From the NCBI GenBank assembly GCA_044892525.1, contig CM097885.1, forward strand, positions 20,646,001-20,710,000: 64,000 nucleotides of DNA, written 5' to 3'. Position numbers and translations under genes: made by a program. Below the pieces are notes generated by a model, which saw only the letters and a list, made by a program, of their open reading frames with translations, was not told the DNA's origin and ran no database searches. Within the stretch, counting starts at the first letter, position 1. The number at the start of each line of letters is the position of its first letter. Source of the DNA: Schmidtea polychroa. Lineage: Eukaryota. Shown in pieces: positions 1 to 19,971 of the stretch.

Positions 1-5
1 TGATA

Positions 6-2081
6 ATGGATGGCGACAAACGACTGATGTGCTTACCGGAAAGTAGGCGGAAAGAAATTATGATTCAATATCATGACGGTAAATTGGGCGGACATATGTC
101 AGCTAAGAAAACAGAAGCAAGGCTCAAACAGAAATATTACTGGCCAAATATGAGCAATGACGTGAAAGAATGGATAAAGAACTGCTTGATATGCGCAACC
201 AGAAAAACAACGGGCAGTAAACTAAAGCCGCCATTGAAACCAATGCCAATACCGCCAGAACCAATGACAATGATCGCAATGGATGTAGTTGGACCACTAC
301 CAGAGACTAACAGTGGAAATGTGTATATATTGGTAATAACTGATTATCTGACTAAGTTCCCTGAAGCATTTGCGATGCCAGACCAAAAAGCACGAACGGT
401 TGCAAGGATATTAGTGGAAGAGATCTGCTGCAGATATGGAACTCCAAAACAAATCTTAACTGACCAAGGAACAAATTTCATGAGCGAGATAATAAATGAA
501 GTGACAAATTATTTTAGAATTGCCAAATTGAGAACCTCGCCATACCACCCGCAAACGAATGGTCAGACAGAAAGATTTAACGGCATACTAATAGACATGA
601 TGTCAAATTACGTGAGTAAACATCAAAAGGACTGGGATGAATATATTAAGTTGTGTCTAATGGCTTATCGAATGTCAATACACTCAGCAACGAAAATGAG
701 TCCGTTTAAACTCATGTATGGAAGGGAATGCAACATGCCGATGGATCTCGAATACCAACCGCCAATCTCACAATATATGGAAATAGATGATTATGTGACA
801 AAGTTCAAAGAGAGAATGCAAGAAATATGGAAAACCGCAGGGATGAACATCCGATTCAACCAAGAAAGTTATAAGGAATTGCATGATAAAAAGAAGAACG
901 TGCAAAACCATCAATTTAAAGTCGGAGATTGGGTTATTATAGAAACACCCGAATTAATCCCAGGAACAGCAAAGAAATTACAACGTAATGGCAGAGGGCC
1001 ATATGAAATCATCTATGTAAACGAGAACAACGCTAGAGTGAAGTTGGTTAACAACCCACTAATTAGACCCATTTATGTGAATACATGTCGATGTAAAGCA
1101 GTAGCGAAAACTGCCACTAAAGACCCAGAAACAAGGAAGATAATCACGAGATCACAAACAAATGCCACAACGGAATCAGAAGTAAGCGGTAGATTAACTA
1201 GATCACAGACAAGACGGATATTCATGCTGAGGGGAGAAACAAGCGGCAGCACCAATAAAGGAACCGAAGCAGAAAGCGAAGCTGACGCAATGGCAAGGAG
1301 CCAAGCAACATGGAATATGACAGTAAAAATAGCACGAGAAATTGTGCCAGAATGGGCTGATATAACCAATAAATACCAAGTATTACGCAAACTAATGATA
1401 GTAGCAGAAAGATATGCGAAAGGATTAAGATATGCCGAAGGATTACAAATACCGATTCAAATATATGAACTAATCCGGAGGTTACCAATCATGTTCCTAA
1501 CAAGTGATTTGAGCAATAATTGGCCAATCCATCATGCAGTCGAAGCAGGACAGGAAAAACGAGCATTAGAGATCATACGTATAATGGAAAACTGCAAACA
1601 ATCGACAAACGTCAAAAACAGTAAAGGGAAAACTCCATTGATGAAAGCCATAGCAATAGGCGCGTCAAGGGAAGTACTCAGAGAATTATTGAGAACGGGA
1701 TCTACGTTGAAAGAAAAAGATAACAAACAACGAACCATCTTACGTTACGCCGTCAGGTCAAAAAGACCTAGCATACTAAACTTCATCACGGGAAATGCAA
1801 CAACCGAAGAAGCCGAGGTGTTGGGACAGAGCATTGAACCAATTCTGGAAGCCATCAGAGGAAACTTAGACAGAACAGCAGCAATATTGACCAAATGGAA
1901 ACAAAACGAATTAAGAGCGGAAGTAATTGATATAAATCAATTCCAAAACAACGAAAATATCGTACTAAGAAGCGCTACATACGATGAAAAAGCAACTAGA
2001 AATACTAGTGTGGGAATGGCACCGGAAACAACGGAAATATCAAGGGACCAAAGAAGAACGAGAAAGTATCCACAACGATAA
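6..2081 (+). CDS. Pol C-terminus: integrase (H2C2 zinc domain, DDE core, C-terminal GPY/F-SH3-like region) fused to ankyrin repeats
   Basis: HDGKLGGH...CLIC zinc motif; DVVGP / TDQGTNF / TERFN catalytic core; GPY motif; ankyrin-type repeats NWPIHHAVEAG, GKTPLMKAIAIGASREVLRELL and QRTILRYAVRS. 5' end is truncated by the window. Confidence 0.95.
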   Translation: MDGDKRLMCLPESRRKEIMIQYHDGKLGGHMSAKKTEARLKQKYYWPNMSNDVKEWIKNCLICATRKTTGSKLKPPLKPMPIPPEPMTMIAMDVVGPLPETNSGNVYILVITDYLTKFPEAFAMPDQKARTVARILVEEICCRYGTPKQILTDQGTNFMSEIINEVTNYFRIAKLRTSPYHPQTNGQTERFNGILIDMMSNYVSKHQKDWDEYIKLCLMAYRMSIHSATKMSPFKLMYGRECNMPMDLEYQPPISQYMEIDDYVTKFKERMQEIWKTAGMNIRFNQESYKELHDKKKNVQNHQFKVGDWVIIETPELIPGTAKKLQRNGRGPYEIIYVNENNARVKLVNNPLIRPIYVNTCRCKAVAKTATKDPETRKIITRSQTNATTESEVSGRLTRSQTRRIFMLRGETSGSTNKGTEAESEADAMARSQATWNMTVKIAREIVPEWADITNKYQVLRKLMIVAERYAKGLRYAEGLQIPIQIYELIRRLPIMFLTSDLSNNWPIHHAVEAGQEKRALEIIRIMENCKQSTNVKNSKGKTPLMKAIAIGASREVLRELLRTGSTLKEKDNKQRTILRYAVRSKRPSILNFITGNATTEEAEVLGQSIEPILEAIRGNLDRTAAILTKWKQNELRAEVIDINQFQNNENIVLRSATYDEKATRNTSVGMAPETTEISRDQRRTRKYPQR

Positions 2082-3909
2082 AAAAGAGATAATTAAAAAA
2101 TACGAAGAGATGATCAAAGCGACAAATGTCGAGGACGACATTTTTTGGAAAACCCCGGGTGAGAGGAATGACGATGGTGATGACGACGAAAAAACAGAGG
2201 ATAACGACAAAAACCCAGAGGGAAATGACAGAAAACGGAATCCAGAAGGTGGAGAAACAACGGACGATGATGAGGAGTTGGAAGAAGACGAAGAGGACCA
2301 ATGCCGAGGTGAAGATCAAGGATTCGACAAAACAGAAAACAAAAAGCGAAAGTCCCCACTACACAGCATAGTATTTCGGAATCAAATCCAGCCAATCCTA
2401 CTACAAAGAATATTTATAATACTAACATCTATCTGTTTAACGGAAACAAAAAATATGAGAATCGTAAGAGAAGCTTTCCAAGAAGGCGAAGTATTTATGA
2501 TAAAAGTCAGCGATTACGACGGAAACGCCGTCGGAATATGTGTGCAACTAATGGAAGGAACAGGGGTAAGTTGTGATTTCAGATCGATAACAAAAGGAAA
2601 GATCTTTAGCAGCCAAAAAAGAGACCCCAGGCTATGCGGAGATTATGACATCTGTAGGGACATAACAACAGAGGAAATGGAACTAGAAAGAGCCAATGAA
2701 ACCGGAGTACATTTCCAACTTAACATTTTGGAAGAAGGTATCGAAATAGAAGATAAAGGGAGTCGATCAATTACACATGTATGCATCAGAGAAGACAGAG
2801 ATATATGCATAATAACAGATACGACACAAGACCACAAATTCTTCTGGGGAGAAGTCAAACCAAATACCCCTACTGTGGTATACGCAGGAACACAAGGGAT
2901 AGTAGTATGTAAAGGAACAAGAACTGCACCAAGAAAAGACAAACCAAAGAGTATGGCAATGAAACAAGGTCCATTGATGGAGATAGCAACCAAGAAGCCA
3001 AACAAATCGGTTAGTACAAAAACAACAACAGAACAAAATCAAACCGAATTAATAAAAACAACAACATGGATTAACGAAGTAATTAAAGACGAAAGACGGG
3101 AAGTGCAGATAACTATCAACCTCAACAAGAAAGGTGAAGAGGTAATTACAGTCAAAAACCAAGAAGGAGAACCAATAATAAGGATATGTGTAATGGATAA
3201 GACGGGAATAATCGACTGTACAACAACACCGATAGACAAAGATGCAGACGTTAAAATGGAGACAGGGAAACGGAAAGAGCGATACCAAGTATGTATCCTT
3301 AAGAATGGAAGAGGAACCAGCGTATGTCAACCAATAACTCGACAAAAACCCCAATTAATAAACATACCGTGGATACCCCGAGATCAGGAAGGGGGAGAGA
3401 AACGGGAAAATCACAGCCACCTAACAGAAAAAGAGAAGGAACGATTACATCAAGCATTCAAGAAAATCAAAGCACCAGAAACAAACACCACAGGTAGTAC
3501 AATATTAACGACAGTAAAAACAAATAATGGAACAACGATAATCACAAAGATGATATGGATAACTAGCGCGATAGTAAGCACGATAATAGCGTTAGCAATG
3601 ATTCAGTGGATAAGAACCACCAAAAGATGTAAACAAAAACCGAGAAACCGAAGAGAATGGCCAAAGGTAGAAAAATTTGAATACGGTATTCCAACGGAGA
3701 ATCTGAATCTAGAAGAATACGAGGTGGTAGAGGATTCCGGATCCAGCGGATTGTGGATGTCGGAATTACCAAGAATATCCACACCCAACGAATGGACACA
3801 CGAAGTCGATATATACCGACTAACAAACGAAAGATATGGGGGATGCGCACGTTGCATTCCGGCCCCATGGCGACACTGGTATAACAAGAGGAGGAGCTGT
3901 TGTAAATAA
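1984..3909 (+). CDS. Acidic linker plus repeated Cys-pair beta-rich domain plus single TM helix (membrane protein in env-like position). Overlaps the pol end in the +1 frame
   Basis: 641 aa ORF with a D/E-rich tract; hydrophobic ILLQRIFIILTSICL; four similar motifs (ICVQLMEGTGVSC, VCIREDRDICII, ICVMDKTGIIDC, VCILKNGRGTSVC); TM MIWITSAIVSTIIALAMIQWI followed by a basic stop-transfer segment. Confidence 0.7.
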   Translation: MKKQLEILVWEWHRKQRKYQGTKEERESIHNDKKEIIKKYEEMIKATNVEDDIFWKTPGERNDDGDDDEKTEDNDKNPEGNDRKRNPEGGETTDDDEELEEDEEDQCRGEDQGFDKTENKKRKSPLHSIVFRNQIQPILLQRIFIILTSICLTETKNMRIVREAFQEGEVFMIKVSDYDGNAVGICVQLMEGTGVSCDFRSITKGKIFSSQKRDPRLCGDYDICRDITTEEMELERANETGVHFQLNILEEGIEIEDKGSRSITHVCIREDRDICIITDTTQDHKFFWGEVKPNTPTVVYAGTQGIVVCKGTRTAPRKDKPKSMAMKQGPLMEIATKKPNKSVSTKTTTEQNQTELIKTTTWINEVIKDERREVQITINLNKKGEEVITVKNQEGEPIIRICVMDKTGIIDCTTTPIDKDADVKMETGKRKERYQVCILKNGRGTSVCQPITRQKPQLINIPWIPRDQEGGEKRENHSHLTEKEKERLHQAFKKIKAPETNTTGSTILTTVKTNNGTTIITKMIWITSAIVSTIIALAMIQWIRTTKRCKQKPRNRREWPKVEKFEYGIPTENLNLEEYEVVEDSGSSGLWMSELPRISTPNEWTHEVDIYRLTNERYGGCARCIPAPWRHWYNKRRSCCK

Positions 3910-4031
3910 TGTATAAATGGAATGATAAAAGTAGTGATAATAGTAGTAACATGTACAAAATAAAAGTAGTAAATTAAAACAATATGTAGAAAATCAAAAA
4001 CAAGTATGATGACCATGTATTATAAATAGGA

Positions 4032-4487
4032 ATGAACCAGAGAAACGAAGAGCAGGAACACCCAAATGGGATACCACATGTTGTTGAAGTAAGAGAACAG
4101 CCGCTTATGAATGTACATCCAGTAGACATGATGGAGATGAACGTGCCAAACCAGCCGAGTCAGCCAACAGGATACATGTGGAGGGCACAGTGTGAATTAA
4201 TGACCCAATTGACAAATCAGACTCAAGAGCACTGGGTACGAAACCAAACGGCGTTGATAGAGAGTATTAATAGAAATGCAATATATATTACAAAAATAGA
4301 GGAACAACACCAAATAATCGCGCAACTGGAATATAATAACAATCAGTTAATAAGCCAAATCAGATGGCAAGCGGAAGAAATTAGAAGGTTACACCAAAAT
4401 CGACAACATGATGATATTGCCAGTTTAGTCGAATGGATGACCGGGCTACCAGGAACTGGGGAACCGGACTCGACGGTAGATGTATAG
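4032..4487 (+). CDS. Small Q/N-rich coiled-coil cargo protein, unknown function
   Basis: 151 aa ORF with ATG preceded by AG, heptad-like central segment, and the same composition as its neighbours. Confidence 0.65.
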   Translation: MNQRNEEQEHPNGIPHVVEVREQPLMNVHPVDMMEMNVPNQPSQPTGYMWRAQCELMTQLTNQTQEHWVRNQTALIESINRNAIYITKIEEQHQIIAQLEYNNNQLISQIRWQAEEIRRLHQNRQHDDIASLVEWMTGLPGTGEPDSTVDV

Positions 4488-4576
4488 GAGAGAAAGGAGT
4501 GAAATGTAAATAATCCTGTAAATAAATAGAGTTATAATCAAGTAGAAATCCCAAGATTAAAAATCATCATTGTAGA

Positions 4577-6001
4577 ATGCAAAACAAAGCGGAAGAGAAC
4601 CGGAGAGAAGCAGAGGAACAAAAGATTAACTATGAATTGATGAGAAAATATCAAGCCAAGCCGGACGAGTTCGAAGAGAGGCTATTATGTGCCGATGCAG
4701 CATGTAGAAGACTACTGATTGGAGCAAGTCAAACTCGATGCGGGTGTAGATTATGCCGAGGGTGTGATATAAGATTAGCCAAGCTAAAGCGAGAAACTTG
4801 TCCAGGATGTGGAGAAGCATTTAAGTTGGTTCCCACTGGCACGATACCGGATAGAGCAATGAACCGAGAAATCAGAGAAGTGAAAATAAGATGCACCCAA
4901 AGGTCATGCGAATGGACAGGTCGAGTAAAGGAGTTAAGAGCCCACACAGACGTATGCGAATATCTAGAATTGGAATGCGAAGCATGCACGGTAAAGTTTT
5001 TTCGAAAAGAGAAAACCAAACATAAAGGGGAATGCGAAGCGCGAACGGAAAAATGCGAATTTTGCGGAGAAACTGCTAATTGGAGAGAAATCGAAATGGA
5101 ATATCGAAACGCAGTAGAAAGACGGATTTGCGACGAATATACAGGGAGATGCCCAAACGAGTGTGGAGAAATTAACAACGTCAGATTAAATGAACATTGG
5201 GAGATATGCACGAGAAAGACGATAAAATGCCCAATGGTAACATTCGATTGTAGAGTACAATTACCAGCAGAAGAAATGAAGAAGCATGTGGAGGAGAATA
5301 CATTCGAGCACATGCAAAAGATGATGAGAGCAATAGAGTTAACAGCAAGGGCAATCGAAGATGTTAAAGACGAACTCAAATCACATAAAATCATGATAAA
5401 AGAAATGCTGAGCTCACAGGAAAGCTTCGAAAATACGAGAGAAGCCGTAACACAAAGGATGTTGAAATTAGATGACAAATTAGTCGAAGTAACTAAACTA
5501 CAAACCAAATGGACTGCAAAGGAACTGACAACAGAGGAACTACCAATATTGCCATATATGTGGAAAATCCAAGGAATAACAGAAATAATGGAGCAAGCAA
5601 AGCAAGGAATCCGGACAACGATAGTGAGCAAACCATTCTACGCCAAGAAACATGGATACAAGATGAAATTGAGATGGTTTCCAAATGGTGAAGGAAAGTT
5701 TAAAGATCGGTGCATGTCCATGTATATGCAAATCTGTAAAGGAGATTTTGACGACCTAATAGCATGGCCATTCCGACATAGATTAAAAATATCTCTCTTA
5801 GGATCAAAAAAGACACATATAATGTGCTGTCGAGCATCCAGTCCAGCATGGAATAAACCGAGTACAGAGGTTAATCCTGCGGTAGGAGTAGCAGAGTTTA
5901 TGCAGCTATACCAATTTAATGAAGGGTCCTACATAGAAAAGGACACTATATTCTTCCTAATCGAACTAGACGAGGAAGGACCAACAATAGAAATACGATA
6001 G
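4577..6001 (+). CDS. TRAF-family protein (variant RING, TRAF zinc fingers, coiled coil, MATH/TRAF-C domain)
   Basis: RING-like CADAAC..CGCRLCRGC..CPGC; TRAF zinc fingers (CTQRSCEWTG..HTDVC; CPNECG..HWEIC; CPMVTFDC..H); MATH hallmarks YMWKIQG, SKPFY..HGYKMKLRWFPNG, SMYMQICKGDFDDLIAWPF and IEKDTIFF. Confidence 0.95.
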   Translation: MQNKAEENRREAEEQKINYELMRKYQAKPDEFEERLLCADAACRRLLIGASQTRCGCRLCRGCDIRLAKLKRETCPGCGEAFKLVPTGTIPDRAMNREIREVKIRCTQRSCEWTGRVKELRAHTDVCEYLELECEACTVKFFRKEKTKHKGECEARTEKCEFCGETANWREIEMEYRNAVERRICDEYTGRCPNECGEINNVRLNEHWEICTRKTIKCPMVTFDCRVQLPAEEMKKHVEENTFEHMQKMMRAIELTARAIEDVKDELKSHKIMIKEMLSSQESFENTREAVTQRMLKLDDKLVEVTKLQTKWTAKELTTEELPILPYMWKIQGITEIMEQAKQGIRTTIVSKPFYAKKHGYKMKLRWFPNGEGKFKDRCMSMYMQICKGDFDDLIAWPFRHRLKISLLGSKKTHIMCCRASSPAWNKPSTEVNPAVGVAEFMQLYQFNEGSYIEKDTIFFLIELDEEGPTIEIR

Positions 6002-6141
6002 ACGGATAGAAGGGAACTGTAAATATTTTGTAAAAACGATGTAAAGCAAATATAAAATTATTGTATACAGTAAAGTAACTTACCAAAACTATAAAAATTA
6101 GAAAAAGAAAATGCAAAAAGAAATGATGAAATTTATTATAG

Positions 6142-7320
6142 ATGATTAATCAAGAGAAACCGAATATCCGAAAGAAAACGATCACAATGAGAGAGGAAGA
6201 GGACAATACATCACCTAGAGAAAGAATGAAGGATGCGGAACTCAGCAAAACAAAACCAAGTAGTTACGCGTATTATCGAAGAATGGGAAATGATTATAAT
6301 TTGGTACATGAAAATTTGAAACTGGGAGATAATGAACAATTCAGATGTGAGAACCAGAGATATCTGTCATTTGAACATCAGACCATTTTCACCAAGGAAC
6401 AGAGCCGAGCGCTAGCACGCGACGGATTTTTCTTCTCCGGAAAACCAGATATACCCGATCAAGTAACGTGTCGTTTCTGTAAAGGGAAATTAGCAGAATG
6501 GAAAAAAGGAGAACACCCAAAGGAGGAACACCGTAAACGATTTCCAACTTGTCTATTCGTACTGGGATTTGATGTACACAACAAACCGGAAATCAAATAC
6601 GAAGCCTTGGAGAAATTGAAAACTGAAGACGAAAAAGGAGGGAAAATGAGCATCGCGATAACCAGAATCGTTGACGAATATGTTCCAACTTGTGAAGGTG
6701 AATTCCTCACGCAAATAGCAGATAACAGAATGAAAACGTTCGGAGATGATACGAGAGGACCTGAACTAGCAATAAGAGGATTCTTCCTAACAGAAAAGCA
6801 AATACTCAAGTGTGAAAGATGCGAAAGCCAACAGAAATTACCGGAAGAAGGCATACCAGAAATTAGACATCAAGCATGGTGCCTGTACCACAACGAACAA
6901 GAAACCGAATACCCAGAAGTGCTAGTAACAGAGGAAGAGGTTGACGAAGTGGTAGACAAACCCAACATGTGCAGAGCGTTGAAAGCAGCCGGAATAGGCA
7001 CGACAAGGGCAAAGAACATGATTAGAGAGAGACTACAGAAAAACGTACATATACCAACAACAACGTACGATATGATCAGAGCGATAACTCAGTATAGAGA
7101 AAAACCTGAAACAAAAATAAAAGAAGAATCAATGGTCAAAGCAGCTATCTTACGAGATATCAAATGTACTATGTGTTGGGAGAGGAGTGTAGAAGTTATT
7201 CATATGCCATGCGGACATTTGATCGCATGTGCTACGTGTAGTAGAAAAGTAAAGGAATGTCCGATGTGCAGACAGAGGATTGCGCAGCGAATCAAAGGGT
7301 TTCGCTACGCCGATCAATAA
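6142..7320 (+). CDS. Inhibitor of apoptosis (IAP) protein: one canonical BIR, one degenerate BIR, C-terminal RING
   Basis: BIR LARDGFFF...CRFC-x16-H-x6-C is a perfect zinc signature. The second BIR-like unit LAIRGFF..CERC-x15-H-x3-C is degenerate. C-terminal RING is CTMCWERSVEVIHMPCGHLIACATCSRKVKECPMCR. Confidence 0.95.
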   Translation: MINQEKPNIRKKTITMREEEDNTSPRERMKDAELSKTKPSSYAYYRRMGNDYNLVHENLKLGDNEQFRCENQRYLSFEHQTIFTKEQSRALARDGFFFSGKPDIPDQVTCRFCKGKLAEWKKGEHPKEEHRKRFPTCLFVLGFDVHNKPEIKYEALEKLKTEDEKGGKMSIAITRIVDEYVPTCEGEFLTQIADNRMKTFGDDTRGPELAIRGFFLTEKQILKCERCESQQKLPEEGIPEIRHQAWCLYHNEQETEYPEVLVTEEEVDEVVDKPNMCRALKAAGIGTTRAKNMIRERLQKNVHIPTTTYDMIRAITQYREKPETKIKEESMVKAAILRDIKCTMCWERSVEVIHMPCGHLIACATCSRKVKECPMCRQRIAQRIKGFRYADQ

Positions 7321-7402
7321 CAAAAATTAAAATTCCGTGTATAAAGTGTAGATAATAAATGTATGAAATAATAGTGGTAGTAATAGTGTAATTATTTAGA
7401 CA

Positions 7403-9001
7403 ATGAATAAAGAATCACAAACCTATGTGGAAACCGAGATGCAACAACTGGAACAGTACAAATCCATCATACAAACATACGAAGCAGAAAGAGTAAAGAG
7501 AGAAATAGAAATGTACAAAACCATGTATGAGAAAAAGCAACAAGAATTAGAAGTGGAGAAGGCGGAAGCACTGGCAGCAAAGGAGAAGTGGATGAAACAG
7601 GTAGAGGAATTAACCGAGGATGTGAGAAATACCTCAACATACCAAGAATTGGAGGAAGAGCTCTCGAATTTACGAACTCAGCGGATTATGGAGATAGTTG
7701 GGTTATGCGGAGAGATAATAATGCAGAAGGCACAAATTAGAGAAGCAAAGGAACAATACGAGGAGGAACAGCGTAAATCAGAACGAATAAAATTACAGGC
7801 GCAACAATGGAAGGGGAAAAATGAAACACTCCTAACAAGGCAGAATGATAGCCACGAACATCAAATACGAAATTACAAGGCCGAACTAAAAGAAGTAAAG
7901 GGCAAATGCGCAATGATGAAAGAAAAATGGGAAAGATGCAAAAAGACCCTAAACGAAGTCAGAGGGCAAGGGAGGAGAACACCGCATAGAGAACCAATTG
8001 TTAAAGATAACGTATTAGAACGAATTAACACACAAATAAAGATACAAGCTCAGAAATGGAAGTATAAATACCTAGGAAGTCAAACTCAAGTGCTCTATTG
8101 GAAAATCAGTAGCAAGGAACAACTGCGATTACGAAAAGCAGACCAAGAATTTTACGAAACAAGAGCTGCACAGCGAGAAGAAGAGGAAGTAGAGTGGAGA
8201 AAACGACAGCAGAAATTCGAAGAAACCGAAAAGTGTCTCAAGCACCAAGCCCGAAAATGGAAAGAGAATTGGAAAGAAACCAAAGAGGAATTAAGACAGT
8301 TGCCTATGAAACTGATGGAAAGAGACGAATTTAAAATGTGGGAAATGATAGAAAACCAAAAGGAGGAGATCAGCCGATTGAGTAGAGAACATAGAATCAA
8401 GACGCGGACCAGCGACGGTAGACGGAGAGTTATAAAGAAACAGACTCGAGAAATAAGAAGATATGAATACCAGGAAAAGAGATGGGAACAACAATTGACA
8501 GACCAAGATCGACAGATCCGACAATTTCAAACAGAGGTAGAGGAAGCTAATCAAGAGATGAACGGATATAAAGGTATGTACACCCAAAGGGATGTGAATT
8601 GGAAGCATCAGATTGCGCTTAATGCGAAATGTAGAGAGGAGTGCGATAAGGCAATTCAACAAGCCAAACAGGAAACCGAGATAATAAAACGATGCTTCGA
8701 AGAAAATGAAGCGAATCTGAGAGCAGAAATCGAGAAGTTGAAAATGCTTGAAAAAACCCAACGATTGGAAGAGGAATTGGATGAGATGATAGAAAACGAA
8801 AGTAGATTAACGTTTCTGTTGGATGAAGAAATAAACATCTCAACGGAATTGCGGGAGGAAGTAGATCGGTTAAGAAGACAACCACCAATATTATTAATGC
8901 CACTCTACCCGATCCCGTTGCAAGTGCCACAGCCTGCCGAAGTCACAACAGATGAAGGCTTCGAAGAAAATAACGAACAAAATAACGAAACATGGATTTA
9001 G
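7403..9001 (+). CDS. Long coiled-coil cargo protein (532 aa)
   Basis: E/K/Q/R-rich helical sequence throughout with a Pro-rich tail; no catalytic motif recognised. Confidence 0.75.
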   Translation: MNKESQTYVETEMQQLEQYKSIIQTYEAERVKREIEMYKTMYEKKQQELEVEKAEALAAKEKWMKQVEELTEDVRNTSTYQELEEELSNLRTQRIMEIVGLCGEIIMQKAQIREAKEQYEEEQRKSERIKLQAQQWKGKNETLLTRQNDSHEHQIRNYKAELKEVKGKCAMMKEKWERCKKTLNEVRGQGRRTPHREPIVKDNVLERINTQIKIQAQKWKYKYLGSQTQVLYWKISSKEQLRLRKADQEFYETRAAQREEEEVEWRKRQQKFEETEKCLKHQARKWKENWKETKEELRQLPMKLMERDEFKMWEMIENQKEEISRLSREHRIKTRTSDGRRRVIKKQTREIRRYEYQEKRWEQQLTDQDRQIRQFQTEVEEANQEMNGYKGMYTQRDVNWKHQIALNAKCREECDKAIQQAKQETEIIKRCFEENEANLRAEIEKLKMLEKTQRLEEELDEMIENESRLTFLLDEEINISTELREEVDRLRRQPPILLMPLYPIPLQVPQPAEVTTDEGFEENNEQNNETWI

Positions 9002-9129
9002 TCGAAGGGAGATGTTACATGTAAAAAAAAAAAAAAAACCATAAAGCCAAAACCAAATAAAATTACAAAACCAAAAATTCAAAATAAAAGGGGGACGAAA
9101 GGAAATATGATGTGTATATTTTTGTAGAT

Positions 9130-9894
9130 ATGAATTATTTAAAAGAAAGAGAATCAACGAGTAACGCAAGAAAATCAATTGACCAACCTGAACAAAGCCA
9201 GAATACGATACCAATCAAACAAGAACCGATGAAATATTATAGCAATAAATGGAGAGTCAGCAAGTTGTTCAAAACAAAAATTGCAAATCAAAATGTAGAG
9301 ATTACGAGATTGAGACAGCACATTGTTCAATGAAGACGATTAATAAACACTGTCAAGCAAGAAATTTTGAGGGAAATAAATGAATCGAAACTAAAAGAGA
9401 CGGAAAATAAAAACCTGAGACAAGAGATAGTAGAGTTGAGAGCTCAGGCAGTAATCGAAGACTATTGGAAATCAGAAACAAGGAAGTTGAAAAAGATTGT
9501 GAATATCGACCAAGTTTATATCAAACAATTGGAAGCACAATACGCTTATGCAAAAACGAAAATGCGAGAAAGTAAAAAGGTCGACAAGAGAAACGCAAAA
9601 CTCAAGGAGGAGATCAAGGAACAAAGAGAAGAAACAGAAAAACAATGGAAGTTGAAAGAAAATTACCGGAGAATCCTAAATCAAAAACGACGAAGCATGC
9701 AAGCATTGCAGACGGCAATAACCATCAAGCAGAGAAAATGGAAAAGTAAAGAGAAGCAATTACAAGAAATACCGGAATTAAAGAGACAGTTGATAGCAAC
9801 GCAACTCGAAGTAATAAGAATGAACGAGTTGAGCAAAAGACGAGCACCTGAACCTCCCGTAAAGTTAAGGGATGAGGTCGGTGACTCCCAATAA
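9130..9894 (+). pseudogene. Coiled-coil cargo ORF interrupted by one in-frame TGA (9331-9333)
   Basis: ORFs 9112-9333 and 9367-9894 are in the same frame, separated by a stop and 11 open codons. The likely ATG is at 9130, after TTTGTAG. Confidence 0.7.
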
Positions 9895-9970
9895 ATGAGA
9901 CAAAATAACTGTGTAAATAAATTGTAAATAAAGCCAAGTAATTATTATTAACGTATATGTATATGTAAAG

Positions 9971-10957
9971 ATGAGAAGCGTAATCGTGGTGATAATTATA
10001 ATGACAATGCCAAGAATCCTGCATGCTGAAGAATCAATGATCAGATGCCAGAAAGAATACCCATACCGTAGAGAAGATAGCACCTGTAGTAGCTTTAAAT
10101 CGATCTGCGAAAAACCCAATGAGGAATGCGAACAAATCAAGTTACAATGTTCGCAATGTCCACAAACAACCGAAAGTTCGACGGAAATGCAAATGGCTCA
10201 GACAATAAAAACAATATTAGAACAAGAAATGAAAGTTATCAGAACCCAGATAACAACATTAGCCAAACAATGTCAAAGTCAGAAATCAAAGAGAGAATCC
10301 CAAACAGATCCAGCCGCAATGAGAATGATGATAAAAATATTAGAGGGGATAAAACAACAAGTAGTAACAGCTACCAATGGACGTTCAAGTAATTACGAAA
10401 TGGTAGTGAAATCTTTAAAGGAAATGAAAGGAAAAATAACTTCCATCATCAAAGAGGAACCCAGCATTAAAAATGAGGTAACGAAAACCTTGAAAGAAAT
10501 GACAAGGGAAATCTTAACGACCATAAACAAAAACCCAATGAACTCCGAGAAGATGATTAAAACCCTGGAGGAAATAAAGAAAGTTGTCACCTCGGAAGAA
10601 AACAAATTCAACAAACCCGAAAAATCAGAGATTATAGATACAACCCAATTGGGAGAAATCGTAAACAAACCCAAAGTAATAGAACCGAGAGAGTCTGAAT
10701 CTCTCACAATATTGATCCTATTAGCGGCGAGCCTAATGATAAACATCACCGTACTGAGCCTGATTGCACTCAAACCCAATTCCAGTAAAGAAAGAAACAA
10801 AACCCTCAAACTAAAAGAACAATCAAGAAGTATTCGTATCCCAATGGAAGAACAGCTAATCCAAACAACGAACCAACCAAGATACTTCAAATCTTCCCCA
10901 AACATTGAAACCAGAGCCGTCATCGAGACGAGATCCCGAACAACAGAGTTCTATTAA
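9971..10957 (+). CDS. Type I membrane protein: signal peptide, Cys-rich N-terminus, helical repeats, TM helix, ~60 aa cytoplasmic tail
   Basis: MRSVIVVIIIMTMPRILHA signal; 6-7 Cys; repeats such as MMIKILEGIK / MVVKSLKEMK / VTKTLKEMT / MIKTLEEIK; TM LTILILLAASLMINITVLSLIAL. Confidence 0.8.
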   Translation: MRSVIVVIIIMTMPRILHAEESMIRCQKEYPYRREDSTCSSFKSICEKPNEECEQIKLQCSQCPQTTESSTEMQMAQTIKTILEQEMKVIRTQITTLAKQCQSQKSKRESQTDPAAMRMMIKILEGIKQQVVTATNGRSSNYEMVVKSLKEMKGKITSIIKEEPSIKNEVTKTLKEMTREILTTINKNPMNSEKMIKTLEEIKKVVTSEENKFNKPEKSEIIDTTQLGEIVNKPKVIEPRESESLTILILLAASLMINITVLSLIALKPNSSKERNKTLKLKEQSRSIRIPMEEQLIQTTNQPRYFKSSPNIETRAVIETRSRTTEFY

Positions 10958-11038
10958 TGTGACATCATGACAGTATAAACATTTCAGGACATTATAAAAC
11001 ATTATCAAACAATCGCGATTTCAAAGACGGAGACTGAT

Positions 11039-11984
11039 TGTGACTAATAACATTGATTCTTGAGCATGATAATTTTATTTTATGTGGACCGACCTCGGTC
11101 GTTCTTTTTCTTCATCTTTCAACCCATCTGTAAAATGTAGTGTAATAGTAGCATTTTTATGTATGTGGGTATTGAGGTCACGACCCTGTAGCTCGTGGAC
11201 CCAATTTGCATGTAGGCACTTGTAATATAGTGCAAGTATTCTGAAAATTAATCTTGTTCATCTTCTGATTTAAATTGCGGGTCGCAATTTTATGGGCCCC
11301 CGAGTGTTTTATGTTGGGCTAGAACTGAATTCTAGACCCAAAATACACATTGTGACTGAAATGTGTAGGTACACAGCAAGTAAAAAAGCACCAAGTATAA
11401 TTAAATATTAAAACCTACACCAAATAAACAATGGTAATTAAACAGAGAAAACAACAAGAATAATAAACACACAAATTAAATAAAATTATACAAAAGCAAG
11501 AAGTTATGCAAAATCTAACTCAAAAATAACCAAATAGACATAGAATTACCAAAAGCAAACTCGAATAACTTAAAAGATGGTAAAAACAGTAAAAAATTCC
11601 AGAAAAACCCAGAACATTCCATTAAAATGGCGATGACCATCACAAAAGCCATAAAAGTTAGAGAAAATAAATAAATTAGTATTAAAAATAATAAATCTTA
11701 AAAAGAAATTCATAAAACACCAGGTGGAATAAAAATTAAATTAAAAGTAAAATAGAATGTTCTGGAACCGTTCCAAATCCATCATGGACGTCAAATTAAC
11801 GAAAAATAATTAAAAAATAAAATTTTAAAAATAAAAACAAAAATTATGGCATAAAAATTGCCATTAAAAATATCGAAATTACAAAATAGAAAATTCTGGA
11901 ATAAAAAGAATTCGAGTTTGTTTTAATGCATCAATACATACACGTGTACAAAATAGGTATATATACTGACACGTTTCAGTCACA
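11039..11984 (+). repeat. Candidate 3' LTR (or its start) of the giant Gypsy element; contains a 17-bp inverted-repeat-bounded sub-segment 11350-11985
   Basis: TGTGAC follows a PPT-like run, and GTCACA occurs at 11979-11984. TTGTGACTGAAATGTGT (11350-11366) matches the reverse complement of 11969-11985 at 16/17. No second LTR is in the window to confirm. Confidence 0.4.
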
Positions 11985-13199
11985 AATCAGCACTTTTTGC
12001 CAATAAATTTTTGTTCAAAGAAAATTTTGTCCAGGAAACTAGCAGTAAGTAGTTTTCCTTTTTGGTATTTATTATTTTTTTCATTAATATTGGTATTTTT
12101 ATGTTTTAAATGTAAAATTATTTTAATGAATTTAATTGATCTTAACCTTTCATCTAACTTAGTTTTACCTTTTTGACTAATCAGCGACATCTTAGTGCGT
12201 CGCTATTTAGTCCTGCATTTAACATTGATTTTAAATGACAATTCACAGGCAGACAAGCAATATATTTTATATAAAATTTTTTTTTGTTTGGTCATCGGAG
12301 GTCGGCCACTTCATGGTTCTACTATGGAGTTGTGTCGGTAAAACCCCTCCGCTATGGCTCCATATATTTATTTATCGGTCGACAGCGATGTTTCGACCCA
12401 ACATTACAATAGGGCTTGTCGTAGCGGTCACAGTGGGGCCGTGTAAGCAATCATTCTTCCCGAGTTCCAATGCAGCACATATTTAAAATCAACATTAAAA
12501 ATCTCATACATTACTTCACACTAAGGTCATAATTGAGTAGATCTCAGACCCAAATTAAACACAGCAATTACAATTCAGTTAATGTAGTCGGTTAAGACCT
12601 CTCCACTTATGCGTCTGTCGAACATCGTTAGTAAATAAAAATTTTTTTTAAAGATGTGAGGATTTTGCTCGGATCTGATTATGATGATAGCATCTCGAAG
12701 TTCGACAAGCGTAAAGGATGGAATAGATTCAATTAAGTATAAAACCCCCAGCGAGTAGTATATATCCTGATCTCAGGATTAAAAGATAGTATTGCCAATA
12801 CCCAAATCAATCAGGAGTTAGGGTTATATTATAACTTCTTTTATTTTTCATTTATAAATCAATATCAATGAAGCATTATTATTTTAGAAAATGTAATATC
12901 ACCAATTATAAACTATTATCGATAAAACCTTTTCAATTTGTAAATAAAACTTTTTATGTAGATGTCTATTCAACTATAAACTTATGTCTATTCAACTGTA
13001 AAGCTATATTAACAACTATAACATAGATATGCGTGATCCTAACTTACTATTCAATTCATCCCTCAATTAGGAATTACAATCGAGAAACTCGTATAAAATT
13101 GTAAATGATCTTATCGATAAAGGATAAATCTTACTTGAGTTTATATACTAGGTCTAAACTAAGAGTCTCCCGCAATCGTTTAACTATGAGTGTATACTT

Positions 13200-14021
13200 G
13201 TTAGCTTATATATAAAACATGGATTAAAGGTATAATCTGATCGTTAAACTACTAAATATATATTGGTTAAATTATAAAAGGTGATTATAATTATGTATAT
13301 AATATAAGTCAAAAATATGCTCTAATCATTAAACCATAAGATGAAGATTAGTTAAATTATAAATTATGACTATAAACTGTATATAAAATCTAAATCAAAA
13401 ATATACTAAACTATAAAGTACCTATTAGATAAAAATATAACTACAAATTATTTATAAAAAATGATATATATAAATTATAAAATAGAATTATAACTTGTAT
13501 AGAAAGTATAAATTAAAAGTATATTCTGATCATGAATTCTAAATTATATCATAAAAGATAGTATATATATAGTTATGTATTAATTATATGAGTAGCTAAA
13601 ATAGAATTATAACTGGTATAGAAAGTATAAATTAAAGGTATATTCTGATCATGAATTCTAAATTATATCATAAAATATAGTATATATATAGTTATGTATT
13701 AATTATATGAGTAGGTTATTCCTAAAAACCCAAACTACAACTAATTATAGATAAAATTTCAATTACCAGAATATAAACTGTAATTAATTATATATAAACA
13801 TTGAGCGTAAATTATAAAGTACAATTCATTATATATGAAACTTATCGGTGTATTATTCCTAAATAGGTAAATTATGAATAAATTTTGGTTACAAAATATA
13901 AATTATAACTAATTATATATTTTGATTATGAAGTACAAAGTGTAAATAATTAGGTAGATTATATAAATATATGGCTCTTAAAAATTTAAATTATAAACGG
14001 TGTAAATTATAAATCATGATA

Positions 14022-14060
<39 letters not shown>
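13200..14060. repeat. AT-rich degenerate TATAAATTATA-type array with a ~107 bp direct duplication, ending in a (TA)n microsatellite
   Basis: Recurrent AAATATAAATTATA units; a near-identical block at ~13479-13590 and ~13598-13710; (TA)n at ~14024-14056. Confidence 0.75.
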
Positions 14061-14061
<1 letters not shown>

Positions 14062-15436
14062 ATATAAATTATCTAGGTATTCCAAAAGATAGTTATAGAT
14101 GAATATTAGTTACAGCAGTAAATGATTACACTCAATTTCCGAGCTTTAAAAAGCTCAATTATAGATAGTCGTATTGCGAACCATTATATACATATTACGA
14201 ATGGTAAAGATCCCTGCAAAATGGTAATATAGCAATCCGAGATATAAATCTGGAAAATGACAAGTACCTATAAGATGCGGTCAAAATTTGTTCTACCTCT
14301 GAATCAGGTATTATAATATGACATTCTAAATCACGGGTGTTAAGGTTTCAACACCCGACAATGTTTTAGCTATTTATACCTCTATTGACTATCAAAATGA
14401 TTATGGGAGTAAAAATCAGTTGTTAAATTATTTCGCACACAAAGTAGAGATTGACCTACAATGTTCCAGTGGTGGCCTGTTTAAAAGTGACCTGAGACTC
14501 GGATCTTCCAAAAATCTTAGCATGATCGCTCCAGGAATAGGGTTTCTAGAAACCGGTGTCGTTCAAGCATAACCTATAAAATCACATCAATAAGGTAATG
14601 ACAAAGGATACCCTAAGCTCTTATAGAATCAATGGTGACGATACAACGTATGAGTGGAATATGGTCTATAAATTAATAGACAACTTACTAAATTCCCATA
14701 AAGCAAAATTCCAAAAACGCCGACGAGAATTGAGGGCAGGTTAACGTTGAAAATCAAAGAAACTTTCCATAGGAGACAGGTCGGAATCATGACCCACTTT
14801 CATGTCAAAACCTGAAAGCGCATATACCTGAATTGCTAAAGTTGTTATGAATATATTAGCAGTATGCACCCCTCGAACGACTTCACCAACGAAGGAGCAT
14901 TGGAACCCAGTTCCACAATAAACCCGTTCGCCAGCGAAATCTTTCTCTAGGGCTAATTACATCAAAATAGCATAAGCTGAATCATAACAATCCAGCCTAA
15001 ATATAATTGCAAATAGAATATATGCCACGATGTAAATAATTATGTAATAATGTTAATTCAATAAAACAACCAGATTTCTGTTTTAATTTTTTCTAATAAA
15101 AGTTAACCAAACCAAAAATTCGACGATTTGGGAACAACCACGAGCAAAATATAAATTTTCGGGGTACAATATTTCTCTTTGTGGTTACTTACTGCACAGG
15201 TAATAATTCGTTAGGATGTTTTCTTCCGATGTTTCTAGGTTGAGGCTATAGGGTGATGATAAGTAACGACTCCCCATTTTTGCTATAAATTTGTCATCTA
15301 ATTCACGACAAGGCACACTATCATCAGTAGGGAGTAACTATTCGCTCGAATCACGGCTTTACGTCTTAGTAGAATGATAAAAAAGATGAAATTTCAAGAA
15401 GAAAATCAGCATTAACCATTTTCATTTAATCATAGA

Positions 15437-15799
15437 ACGTCGCAAGCAAGTGGTCCCGACGAAGCGGAATATAGGCAAATGATAACGCGGCTCCGGACCC
15501 GGTACATCTGGTACCGGATCCACGATTGGAATCGGGGGTTGGACCTAGATAATTATGGTCCGGTCATTCGGAGTGGCCCAGAGCCCGATGCCCCGGCGTG
15601 GGTGAAAGTAGAGCCCACTAACAACGTGCTCCGGGAAGCCCGCGATCGAGCGGCCGATGAGGTAGTAGAGGCCCAAAAGCGGCTGAGGAGACTCGAGCTC
15701 CAACTCAAGGCCGAAACGTTGGGGATAGCTCTTGAAGAGCTGGAGGAGACCGATGCCCCTCCACGAAAACGGGGGAGGCCCCGCAAGAACCCGGCCTAA
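15437..15799 (+). CDS. AT-hook protein, copy 1 (start codon ATG>ACG relative to copy 2; next Met at 15479)
   Basis: C-terminal PRKRGRPRK AT-hook motif, acidic patch and short coiled coil; close paralogue of 19609-19971. Confidence 0.65.
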   Translation, partial: TSQASGPDEAEYRQMITRLRTRYIWYRIHDWNRGLDLDNYGPVIRSGPEPDAPAWVKVEPTNNVLREARDRAADEVVEAQKRLRRLELQLKAETLGIALEELEETDAPPRKRGRPRKNPA

Positions 15800-16089
15800 C
15801 TTATCGACAACCGCGGCCTGAATAAAACGATTTTTACTGATCTTATTTAGTGATATTTTAGTAACATAACGAATTGTATTTCTCTTTTGTTTATCAAACA
15901 TAATCTATCGTGTAGTAATGCAATAAATTATATTTTTTTTTATTTATACTTTGGGCTTTACAGCTAATGGGGCGTATTCATAATTGAGGTGACCCTTTTC
16001 TCATCACCCACTTATAAATTCCATGCATGTACTCTAACCAACTTTGCGCACCAGAAGGCGAATGAGGGGATTTATTATTATTTTCTTCA

Positions 16090-16575
16090 GTGTACCAGTT
16101 ATTGGAAAACCTACGAAAGGACCGCGAACAGGCCCAGCAACAATCCGAGGGTCTCCGAGGTCGGATCGAAAAACTCAAGCTGAAGTATCGAGAACTCCAA
16201 GGTACCTGGTTCAGCCCAGCCGAGATGAAAAAACAGAAGACCCACATCTCGCAAATCCAGACCCAGGCAGAGCAAGACCAACTCGAGATTCGGGCGTTGA
16301 AACTACAAGTACGCTCTCTCGAAAGCAAATTGAATGAAAACCTCATACAAGACGCCCTCCAAGAGCAGATCCGCCCTCTCCAGGTGGAGCTAGCCAGAAT
16401 ATACCCACCAGCCCCGACAGGCAAGCCGAAACGTAAACGGCTCGGGCGGAATACCCGCGACAAATTGAAAAGGGCCTGGCTGGCCGAGCAGGAGAAGTTG
16501 AAAGAGGCTGGGGCCAATCCACGTTCCCAAAAGACGTTCGAGAATGCGACCCTCCTGAATAAACCAACTCTGTAA
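16090..16575 (+). CDS. Coiled-coil protein with basic NLS-like motif, copy 1 (probably a spliced 3' exon)
   Basis: Begins at the acceptor TTTTCTTCAG; KPKRKRLGRN motif; paralogue of 20297-20736. Confidence 0.6.
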   Translation: MYQLLENLRKDREQAQQQSEGLRGRIEKLKLKYRELQGTWFSPAEMKKQKTHISQIQTQAEQDQLEIRALKLQVRSLESKLNENLIQDALQEQIRPLQVELARIYPPAPTGKPKRKRLGRNTRDKLKRAWLAEQEKLKEAGANPRSQKTFENATLLNKPTL

Positions 16576-17199
16576 AACAGTAGTGATTTAATAAATGATT
16601 CTGGTTGTGTAATAAATATATGATCGAACTTTACGTTGACTTAAACCAAAAGGATTGGTAGAAAAGCGTGTGGGAAAACAATCTCGACGAGGGACCAAAA
16701 CAAATCGGACACGTGCCTCCTATCGGCGTCCGTGAACCCATCGAGTACTCGACAATTATAGTGCCTCGATGCGCTCACTTTTTGCGAGTACTCAACCCTT
16801 GGTACAGTACCAACGTTGATTGCTCAACGGGTACCAAGCGGAAAAACAATGTTGTATTCTGGGTTACGCTGGTAACAGCACTTAAACATTCAACCACCAG
16901 TAACCCACCAATATAATGCTTTACCAAGTTGTATAAGTATAACTCATAGACATACAATCATAAAACATAATCGATTTTAAATCTAGCATTCTCAGATTCC
17001 GAGTTAAAATCATAATTTATAAATGTATATAATCTTACTTTATAGCCTTATGCTTTATCTAGTATATACTTCCCTAATGCCTAAACTGGAAACTATAATT
17101 ATATCAGCTAAGAAATCTAGATTAAAAACTATAATTTTTTATAGAACGTGCAAATATCTCAGCCTAAAAATATAACTTATAAAGACTCGAATTATAAAA

Positions 17200-18200
17200 T
17201 ATAATCTTATGCTAATTTTGAAATCTGACTTATAAATATGAGAGGCTATGTATAGATTATATATGTATGATGATAATAAAAAATAAGCCCTAAACCCAAA
17301 ATACGACATATAAATGGTAACTGTATCTCGATTATTAAGTATAAATTATAAATGGTTATATATAAATTATAAATGTATCTTAATTATAAAAATACAATCT
17401 AAAAATAATTATACATAAAATTTCAATTATAGAAATATAATTTATAAATAGTTATATGTAAATTATTAAAATATAATCTATAAAGAATTATACCTAAAAT
17501 TTTATAAAAATATAATTTATCAATAGTTATATACAAATCTGAATTTAAAAATATAAAGTATAAATGGTTATATGTAAATTATCAATGTATCTTAATTATA
17601 AAATACGATCTACAAATGGTTATACATAAAATTTTGGCTATGAAAATATAATTTCTAAATAGTTATGTATAAATTTGGATTTAAGAATATAAATTATAAA
17701 TAGTTACATATAATTATATATATACATGGACCTTAAAAATATAAACTATAAATAGTTAGGGATACACTTTACTTACAAAACTATAAATTATAAATAATTA
17801 TAAAAAAATTTTGATTACAAAATATAAAGTATAAATAGTTATATATAAATTATATACGCATATTGACCATAAAAATATAATCTATATATAGTTACGAATA
17901 AATTTTACTTACAAAAATATAAATTATAAATAATTATATAAAAATATAATTTATAACTAGTAATATATAAATTATAATTGTAGTTTGACTATAAAATACT
18001 AATTATAAACAGTCATATATAACTTCTGATCTTAAAAGGCACGAATTCTAGATAGTTATATAAAGTTACAAATGCAACTAGATTATAAAATAAAAACCAT
18101 AAATAATTATATTTAAATTATGAACGGATCTGGGTTATCGAAATATATATCATAAATAGTACTATAAAATTATGTGTAAGGATGTTAATTATAAGTTTGT
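17200..18200. repeat. Second AT-rich TATAAATTATAAATAGTTAT degenerate tandem array
   Basis: Many imperfect ~40-60 bp units of AAAATATAAATTATAAATAGTTAT. Confidence 0.75.
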
Positions 18201-19608
18201 ATTTTGACTGGAACCTACTTTAAAACTACCTAAATTATGAACTGGGGTTTTGTATTTCTCTTCAGAATATAATCCATAATTACCTATATTATAAACTTCA
18301 TCTATCAATTAAGGATAAATTATAATCCATAAATAAGTGCTGTTCCTGAAACGCAAAAAATTTATTTGAGGATATCATTGTATACTAGCTTAACCTCGCA
18401 AAATAAGTATTAGCATTTGTTATTATTAATTATAATTAAGATCATCACTAGCACTGTTATTATTATCACTATCGTTCCCAAGTTATTACGATCAAGGCTA
18501 ACATCAGCGCTATCGTGCCGAGAATGGGTAGGGTGGTCGGCAAAATTACTAATATTATCATCGCTGGTAACATTTTCCCCTTAACCTGGTTACCGTTTCT
18601 TCATTCCATAATTACCGTTATCCTGAATATCATCATAATTCCCCTTACTGTATCCACAAATTAGTCGCAATAATTGTTAATATAAAATCAGATTTGCACC
18701 ACAAAATTTAGCTTACGTTGAAAAATGGAAAATTACATATCCAAGCATTCAGTGCACGAGTATAGAAATAAAAATTCCAACCCAAACACGCAGCCATGAG
18801 TAAGCTAATAGTCTTCTTTAGGAGGAAACCAACAGGGAGAACGCCACCGATGCGAACTCGGCATTGGAATTTCATGTAAAGATGGGTATAAATCCACGAT
18901 TCCGGGTAAGCTATGAGGCATTTGTGATTCCAACATCGCCGTAGCGTTTATATTAATATTCGTCCGGAAATGGACCAAACAACCTAAACTTCGTATAAAA
19001 ACAAAAAGAAATGGTTACACTGAATATGACAACCCGGTCTAAGTGAGGATGAGGTGGGAAACTAGGTTCCAACAGCTCACCCAGCACCGACGGAGCTGGT
19101 TGATTCAGTAGTTAAATAATTAGTATAAAATAGAAATATTATGTCGATGACATAACAAAAATTAAAAATAAGCCATGGAATTTTCAATAATTAAGACAGA
19201 TAAACAAAGTGCAAATTTTTAAAAATATAAAAGTTGATTTTCTGTAATTAACACGGTCAAATAGGGTTTAGTTTTTAGAAACTAATTTTTTTTTATTTAG
19301 TAAACGTGTTTAACTGTGAATTTGGTAGAGTATTTGCGGTACTGATTTAACAGTGGAAAAGGAAAATTTTTAATTTATAAATTACATAACGGATTTATAA
19401 CCGAGATTTAAATCAATATATGCTTAATTTTGCAAAATCCATAATTTCCCCACAATCTATAACGCAGATTATGATAAGACGATCCACAAATTGACCCACT
19501 CATCATCTTTGCGACTTAGTCGAATGGATAAATCATAGAAACGAAATTCCGAATCTACCAAAAAATTGACACTAATATCTCCTTTAATCGGGCTTATTTA
19601 ATAACAGA

Positions 19609-19971
19609 ATGTCTCAAACAAGTGGACCCGACGAAGCGGAATACAGGCAGATGATCACGCGGCTCCGGACCCGGTACATCTGGTACCGGATTCATGATTG
19701 GAACAAGGGGCTAGACCTGAATAATTATGGCCCGGTCATCCGAAGTGGCCCAGAGCCCGATGCCCCGGCGTGGGTGAAAGCAGACCCCACTAACAATCTG
19801 CTACGAGAAGCCCGCGATCGAGCGGCTATCGAGGTAGAAGCTGCCCAGATGCGGCTGAAGAAAATCGAGCTCCAGCTCAGAGCCGAGGCAGAGGGAGTAA
19901 CCCTCGAAGAGCTGGAAGAGATAGATACCCCTCCACGAAAACGAGGGAGGCCCCGTAAGAACCCTGCCTAA
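19609..19971 (+). CDS. AT-hook protein, copy 2 (120 aa, intact)
   Basis: ACAG|AATG start; PRKRGRPRK at the C-terminus. Confidence 0.7.
   Translation: MSQTSGPDEAEYRQMITRLRTRYIWYRIHDWNKGLDLNNYGPVIRSGPEPDAPAWVKADPTNNLLREARDRAAIEVEAAQMRLKKIELQLRAEAEGVTLEELEEIDTPPRKRGRPRKNPA

Follow-up and report, generated by a model that had tools for sequence, protein, structure and literature searches.

Introduction

Burro1/GYPSM1 of Schmidtea mediterranea is a giant gypsy element of >30 kb with long terminal repeats (LTRs), a polyprotein of ~4,870 aa and accessory BIR, RING and SMC-like open reading frames (ORFs); its apoptosis and ubiquitin cargo is thought to interfere with the host, and the excerpt of this account used here holds nothing on how the accessory ORFs are expressed (PMC6431247). 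Burro elements are described as abundant and expressed in planarians (PMC8532177); this and the other published sources are cited from excerpts. An element that fits the Burro1/GYPSM1 type, assigned by its size, LTRs and domain layout against the published description and not by DNA identity, was analysed in Schmidtea polychroa (assembly GCA_044892525.1). Its 3' half occupies positions 1–16910 of a stretch of 64,000 nt of contig CM097885.1 (20,646,001 to 20,710,000, forward strand), called the window below, to which all coordinates refer. In front of each of its cargo genes stands an AG, likely a 3' splice site judging from conservation, and each spacer carries a conserved TGTA motif at a fixed distance behind the stop codon.

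HIV-1, HTLV-1 and foamy viruses use one LTR promoter, a major 5' splice donor near the cap and acceptors just before the accessory start codons, with full-length RNA escaping splicing. In the adenovirus major late unit a common leader is spliced to many single-gene bodies over ~28 kb, and internal poly(A) sites are proven. The Pumilio response element, UGUAHAUA, is found in 3' untranslated regions, has a free fifth position and is often paired. For flatworm operons, a median intercistronic distance of 99 bp is given in S. mansoni (PMC12582326) and a peak near 100 bp in Macrostomum (PMC8629364).

Results

Cargo start codons

Six cargo ORFs follow the polyprotein on one strand (Table 1), and an AG ends 0–3 nt before the ATG of each, as TAG in five cases and AAG in the last. 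These AGs and spacers of 122, 89, 140, 82, 128 and 76 nt had been listed in a first-pass annotation of the window, made from the letters alone, and both were confirmed in this copy. The 122 nt do not hold as a general value: the frame before the first spacer ends at the stop at 3881–3883 in 31 of 36 copies, so that this spacer is ~148 nt in most of them. The annotation had also counted six to seven downstream genes, of which the six cargo ORFs stand; the frame before spacer 1 is most likely the C-terminus of the polyprotein and not a separate gene.

As background, an AG lies 0–3 nt before 105 of 300 ATGs in window positions 1–10957, and a YAG before 32 of 300. By sampling of spacer composition, the chance of six AGs out of six is P = 0.00097 and that of at least five YAGs P = 0.0001. 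In 37 other copies (88–99% identical), 215 of the 216 sites covered retain the AG, sometimes with shifted neighbours. The T-rich sequence before the AGs, likewise pointed out in the first pass, was borne out, with 45% T in the 14 nt before the AG vs 26% in the remaining spacer sequence; variants shared by two copies occupy 13 of 120 sites in the 20 nt before the AG vs 176 of 568 4-fold sites. When 26 selected starts from three subfamilies were scored, an AG was found within 3 nt in 25 and a YAG in 21; internal-ATG controls gave 77/229 and 144/448 for AG and 23/229 and 56/448 for YAG. The phases from AG to ATG are even (8, 8 and 10 of the 26 starts). Host introns have similar signals, with A/GTAAGT donors and TTTAG or TTGTAG acceptors.

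The cleanest cases come from the LTR, where three variants with unrelated upstream sequence each have a T-rich YAG 1–2 nt before the ATG of the same LTR ORF. Two ORFs with basic C-termini lie inside the LTR (window 15437–16575), and the subfamilies swap the sequence upstream of them and keep an acceptor-like YAG at the first ATG.

A sister family (loci L045–L049), which shares with the Burro1-type element only pol, at 72–75% DNA identity, has a matching cargo layout with gaps of 55–218 nt, and the AG before the ATG recurs there. Three cargo proteins of the window match the sister family at 31–33% identity and the last ORF has no match. Conservation and the sister family together give good support to the earlier proposal that the AGs may act as 3' splice sites giving each cargo gene its own mRNA from an LTR precursor, and the conserved AGs are likely acceptors, one before each cargo gene.

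Stop-proximal motif

A further rule, missed in the first pass, is as strict as the AG rule and concerns the other end of the spacers. In spacers 1–6 the distance from the stop to the first TGTA is 17, 17, 16, 17, 18 and 17 nt; the TGTA extends to TGTAnA(T/A)A in every one, usually with a second TGTA 9–13 nt after the first. In the sister family the first TGTA lies 13–19 nt past the stop in 8 of 10 spacers. The distance from motif to stop is fixed (16–18 nt) and that from motif to ATG ranges here from ~60 to 130 nt. The octamer TGTA[ACT]ATA was counted in three sets and compared with the dinucleotide-shuffled expectation, giving 6 vs 0.7, 9 vs 0.6 and 10 vs 0.6 (~10-fold), and 6.4 kb of cargo coding sequence contain none. 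In a 29-kb sister element all nine octamers fall within its five spacers; the Burro1-type element has further octamers in its AT-rich LTR and leader region. Shared variants fall on 0 of 40 motif sites, compared with 81 of the 436 spacer sites outside the motif (p = 4e-4), and the stop-proximal motif is under purifying selection. It was found in none of 20 3' ends of host TRAF genes, all paralogues of one family.

Among 26 stop-proximal sites, A is invariant at positions 6 and 8, T stands at position 7 in 20 of them, and position 5 varies. The fit to UGUAHAUA is exact in 19 of the 26, and the others deviate at position 5 or 7. The repeats of the host Pumilio have the residues SRQ-NYQ-CRQ-NHQ-CRQ-NYQ-SNE-NYQ, which in the PUF code read UGUAHAUA. 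The ribosome shadow is ~15 nt, so that a protein 16–18 nt past the stop would sit roughly as close as it could and still stay bound on a translated mRNA. Within the model favoured below, Pumilio is probably the reader of the motif; CFIm is a doubtful candidate and a DNA-binding factor an unlikely one. CFIm is kept as a rival reader because the genome encodes CFIm25, in two exons (locus L142), and the motif is absent after ORFs that have no cargo gene behind them. Planarian poly(A) signals are described as having no UGUA upstream, with CFIm59/68 not detectable (PMC5068929).

The six spacers are not recent duplicates of one another. Upstream ATGs are present in every spacer (1–8 each), TATAAA-like words in several, and AATAAA is not enriched (7 observed vs 5.7 expected), unlike the TGTA pair. 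Spacer 5 varies in length from 107 to 208 nt among copies. The sister family (L047) has no IAP ORF: immediately behind its TRAF ORF comes the counterpart of the 532-aa ORF, and both spacer signals are kept; cargo therefore appears to be gained and lost as modules of acceptor, ORF and motif.

LTR promoter block and splice donor

A promoter-like block (CACGTG, TATATATA, TCAGT) is nearly invariant ~650 nt into the LTR. The predicted leader behind it is 54–67 nt long and freely variable, with 14 distinct strings among the 18 LTRs examined, and is followed at TATA+74..87 by a GT[AG][AG]G donor (as GTAAG, GTGAG or GTAGG) in 17 of the 17 LTRs that have the block, at a chance of ~1.4% per LTR. For one leader variant, GTAAG comes next in 172 places and a non-G in none. 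The 5' LTR copy of the donor, at −18912, is situated 22.9–28.9 kb upstream of the six candidate acceptors. LTRs of the sister family have CCAAT and TATA boxes, and in 5 of 6 LTR stretches a donor follows at TATA+55..57. A conserved LTR donor behind a promoter-like block speaks for one leader being cis-spliced to many acceptors. The first-pass annotation had allowed two routes of processing; alternative splicing from one donor gains from the donor being conserved in both families, and the SL (spliced-leader) operon that it had put in its headline becomes the weaker option.

Five sister LTRs (L143–L147) lack exactly the 51-nt GT..AG piece that is present behind the donor in L047, the final 27 nt of which repeat the leader end. 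The loss is compatible with splicing followed by reverse transcription, and splicing out this piece would remove the donor, so that the RNA could be locked full-length.

Other candidates were discarded. At the candidate donors 14595 and 15199 none of 15 other copies aligned, and the stretch from the primer-binding site to the RING ORF has donor-like words that lack conservation. An ATG in the leader was rejected as a constrained start, being in phase 1 in 11 LTRs, in phase 2 with a stop in 5 and absent in 1.

Sequencing runs

Four sequencing runs (X1, X2, X3 and X8), three of them only presumed to be RNA, were compared with positions 1800–11300 as assembled contigs; seven runs containing matching sequence had been presumed to be RNA, none being recorded as such. 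Around spacers 1 and 6, gaps in the cover of X2 and of X3 were not counted as evidence. The first-pass annotation had suggested looking for an SL or common leader joined at the AGs, and none was seen among the contig joints and ends listed. Rare variants are lost from contigs and short leaders are probably clipped as tips, so that the result neither supports nor excludes splicing. The case for splicing at the six AGs comes from the DNA sequence and not from RNA junctions.

X1–X3 share letters that are in the minority in X8 (for example at place 1946, 8.5% of X8 depth), which may mark an expressed subfamily or merely another strain. A loose end at 6112 had the look of a variant subfamily but proved to be a coincidental match of 24 nt with an unrelated locus. 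Contig depth of X2 is ~20-fold higher over window positions 10993–11300, with loose ends at 11153–11155; this segment may be common to related families or contain a 3' end.

The element and its surroundings

The whole element spans −19645 to 16910 (36.5 kb), with LTRs of 5.6 kb that are 99.7% identical between the 5' and 3' ends, TG..CA termini and a target duplication ATAT. In the genome of 781 Mb at least 40 copies, taken from 479 candidates, match positions 3800–7500 at 97–100%. The polyprotein forms an open frame of 4,791 aa in other copies and is broken here into several frames whose summed length matches. Pfam profiles identified zf-CCHC (zinc knuckle), MATH, Monjiviricetes_fusion, protease, RVT_1, RNase H, rve (integrase) and Ank in the polyprotein, a TRAF/MATH ORF and a BIR + RING ORF in the cargo downstream of it, and a RING ORF upstream of gag. 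With Pfam profiles only, the 563-aa piece expected to hold a BCL2-like motif gave no match to it, and no SMC match was obtained in the probable coiled-coil cargo ORFs, which are so called from composition only. Rfam gave no match in 1–11300, no transfer RNA was found in loci L001–L003, and two distant mollusc IAPs were the sole matches in the protein database.

The Gag frame (L001, −10368..−10059) has 103 open codons without Met before its first ATG in 14 of 14 copies, and in two sister-family copies 185 and 107 such codons precede it; a non-AUG or spliced-on Gag start is possible. An ATG at the end of an SL was not supported as this start, the strong acceptor 499–508 nt before the first Met being out of phase and a stop intervening in the Burro1-type family. 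Two TGTAAATA are located ~370 nt upstream of the 160-aa RING ORF (−13726, −13702). The element sits inside an older LTR of the same family (79–89% identical; window 16911–21100, L003/L002), in which the promoter block and donor are likewise present. Farther on, window positions 33988–50659 contain long terminal inverted repeats ~16 kb apart, which we take to be probably a Polinton/Maverick-type DNA element.

Table 1. Features of the element, in window coordinates; negative positions lie before the first letter of the window.
Feature	Position	Strand	Remarks
RING ORF upstream of gag	−13347..−12865		160 aa; TAG directly before ATG; locus L002
pol end	6..2081	+	integrase zinc finger, integrase core, ankyrin repeats; piece of split polyprotein
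Frame with hydrophobic stretch near end	1984..3909	+	most likely polyprotein C-terminal part
Spacer 1	3884..4031	+	148 nt from majority stop; TGTA 3901, 3910; TAG end 4029, ATG 2 nt on
Cargo ORF	4032..4487	+	151 aa; no Pfam family; 31% identity to sister-family 119-aa ORF
Spacer 2	4488..4576	+	89 nt; TGTAAATA 4505, 4517; AATAAA 4521; TAG end 4575, ATG 1 nt on
TRAF-type cargo ORF	4577..6001	+	474 aa; zf-TRAF, MATH
Spacer 3	6002..6141	+	140 nt; TGTA 6018, 6029; TAG end 6141, abuts ATG
IAP-type cargo ORF	6142..7320	+	392 aa; BIR, RING
Spacer 4	7321..7402	+	82 nt; TGTA 7338, 7347; AATAAA 7354; TAG end 7399, ATG 3 nt on
Cargo ORF	7403..9001	+	532 aa; Glu/Lys/Gln-rich, probably coiled-coil; 33% identity over 247 aa to sister-family ORF
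Spacer 5	9002..9129	+	128 nt; A-run; TGTA 9020; TAG end 9127, ATG 2 nt on
Cargo ORF	9130..9894	+	probably coiled-coil; in-frame stop 9331–9333 here; open in 16/20 copies
Spacer 6	9895..9970	+	76 nt; TGTAAATA 9912, 9923; AATAAA 9916, 9927; AAG end 9970, abuts ATG
Last cargo ORF	9971..10957	+	328 aa; hydrophobic N-terminus and second hydrophobic stretch
3' LTR	11312..16910	+	5.6 kb; 5' LTR at −19645..−14056 (locus L002)
Predicted promoter core	11958..11980	+	TATATATA at 11958 behind CACGTG box; initiator-like TCAGT 11976; 5' LTR copy at −18999
Predicted leader exon and donor	11978..12050	+	67 nt here; donor GCA/GTAAGT, G at 12045
LTR-internal ORF	15418..15799	+	no ATG at usual start place in this copy

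Discussion

Taken together, the signals suggest that the cargo mRNAs probably arise by alternative cis-splicing of one LTR leader and carry Pumilio-type sites past their stops. A promoter ~650 nt into the 5' LTR would start one precursor, and the 54–67-nt leader would be cis-spliced to whichever acceptor before a cargo ATG is chosen, giving a family of single-gene mRNAs. Splicing to the acceptor would strip the upstream ATGs of each spacer. Host Pumilio would bind each mRNA at TGTAnA(T/A)A, just behind the terminating ribosome, and the mRNA 3' end would be formed either in the mRNA's own spacer, as in adenovirus late transcription, or in the 3' LTR, as in HIV. Promoter firing, joining of donor and acceptor across 23–29 kb and Pumilio binding are steps that we infer.

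Several observations weigh against this cis-splicing model. Conservation of the AG is weak by itself (12 sites, p = 0.09 vs other spacer sites), and copies and homologous sites are related, so that the counts are not independent. In the set of 26 starts, the Met after the AG was chosen in two cases with an upstream in-frame ATG, the cargo starts of the third subfamily come from a single copy of 12, the one whose frames are most complete, and neither polyprotein starts nor the second LTR ORF are included; in three other copies of the third subfamily the last ORF lacks an AG within 3 nt of its first ATG. The motif is absent after the last cargo ORF (no TGTA in 70 nt), the upstream RING ORF and the LTR ORFs, unlike the pure prediction of Pumilio on every mRNA. 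A YAG lies 34–62 nt beyond the donor in 11 of 17 LTRs, and the LTR donor may perhaps serve only a short intron. Leaders contain an ATG in 16 of 17 LTRs and would create short upstream ORFs. Introns of 23–29 kb would need to bypass many AATAAA. The loss of the 51-nt piece is equally explained by slippage between its 27-nt direct repeats, and no DNA copy joining the leader to a cargo start was found in a search with one leader variant per family. Among the contig ends listed, no joint or loose end fell on the six AGs (a further 320 loose ends and 7 joints lie beyond these), and contigs of the three presumed-RNA runs are continuous across spacers 2, 4 and 6, as full-length RNA or DNA would give.

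An operon with 3' processing in each spacer and a host SL added at each AG is improbable. So too, and to the same degree, is its fuller form, in which the retroelement would be a true eukaryotic operon, its six cargo genes separated at 3'-processing signals of its own, and the SL-capped mRNAs of this anti-death and signalling cargo, with paired Pumilio sites, would stand under a host stem-cell regulator. SL trans-splicing is described in Schmidtea, flatworm operon genes lie up to 300 bp apart, and cis and trans splicing of flatworms often use the same acceptors (PMC12582326). The cargo genes, on the same strand and 76–148 nt apart, fall below ~300 bp and have an acceptor before each by sequence and conservation; the TGTA motif is found only where another cargo gene follows, like an internal cleavage signal, and CFIm25 is encoded. 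An acceptor without an upstream donor is, however, the sign that favours trans-splicing (PMC8629364), and here a cis donor is conserved upstream in the LTR (17/17, and 5/6 in the sister family). AATAAA is at chance level in the spacers and in the short ones stands only 20–62 nt before the AG, where cleavage would hit or come near the branch region. The Macrostomum SL ends in ATG (PMC8629364). The phase in which an ATG at the SL end would be in frame was not preferred (8 of 26). Other flatworms tolerate SL AUGs that are out of frame, which makes the argument from phase a mild one. A mixture, in which most transcripts receive the leader by cis-splicing and a minority receive the SL at the same acceptors, is less probable again: in parasitic flatworms 66% of SL acceptor sites on average are also cis-spliced, but cis-splicing is strongly depleted at operon-resolving sites (PMC12582326).

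Internal promoters would use TGTAAATA / TGTATA(T/A)A as DNA elements, with starts a few tens of bases before each ATG, and are very improbable. These words resemble forkhead-like or TATA-like motifs, the motif keeps to one strand, holds its place and is conserved, and TATAAA-like words stand in several spacers; the motif's spacing is nevertheless tied to the upstream stop and not to the ATG, the variable position 5 between fixed positions 6 and 8 suits a PUF protein better than a forkhead factor, and the T-rich YAG at the ATG and the upstream ATGs are left unexplained. The smallest chance is given to the absence of any processing, with reinitiation or internal entry on unspliced RNA and the AG as a preference of start context or a coincidence. 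Contigs that cross the spacers unbroken would agree with this, except that full-length RNA is expected under every model, and 35% of ATGs have an AG within 3 nt anyway. Yet the distance from AG to ATG floats (0–3 nt), most of the AGs are TAGs that come after a T-rich run on a strand rich in A, each spacer has 1–8 upstream ATGs, and the pattern recurs in LTR variants with non-homologous upstream sequence. Cis-splicing of the LTR leader remains the favoured explanation.

The signals yield exact predictions, namely one leader of 54–67 nt, acceptors at six coordinates and, at stop+17, a motif. If the model is true, the splicing programme of an invertebrate gypsy element would match that of a complex retrovirus or adenovirus in elaborateness, and the stop-proximal octamer would link the output of the TRAF and IAP cargo to host Pumilio or to 3' processing by CFIm. 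In the literature searched, splicing, trans-splicing or Pumilio sites of Burro cargo were not found; the search was not aimed at Pumilio and the primary Burro paper was outside its scope. Within that scope, the putative use of leader splicing by a planarian gypsy element appears to be new, as does the stop-proximal motif; the element itself and the splicing principle were known.

With described Burro1/GYPSM1 the element shares a length of >30 kb, long LTRs, a polyprotein of ~4,800 aa with zinc knuckle, MATH, protease, RT, RNase H, integrase and ankyrin, an env-like fusion glycoprotein between gag and pol and ahead of the protease, and accessory BIR, RING and probable coiled-coil ORFs; it differs in a second, free-standing TRAF ORF downstream. 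Its likeness to the operons of nematodes and flatworms lies in same-strand genes ~100 nt apart with an acceptor each (PMC12582326, PMC8629364, PMC5832876), and the differences are the conserved cis donor upstream and the little room between poly(A)-like words and acceptor. The candidate Pumilio element resembles known ones in its octamer with a free fifth position, its frequent pairing and the matching residues of host Pumilio, whereas it departs from the usual sites by standing in a mobile element, at a fixed 16–18 nt past every internal stop. The common-leader scheme would be that of the adenovirus major late unit, here in a retroelement with candidate internal poly(A) sites only. Complex retroviruses offer a similar LTR promoter-like block with a donor near the predicted cap, as judged by sequence conservation; unlike them, this is an invertebrate gypsy-type element with at least eight acceptor-led ORFs, predicted introns of up to 29 kb, and non-overlapping ORFs separated by spacers of 76–150 nt, each with the stop-proximal motif.

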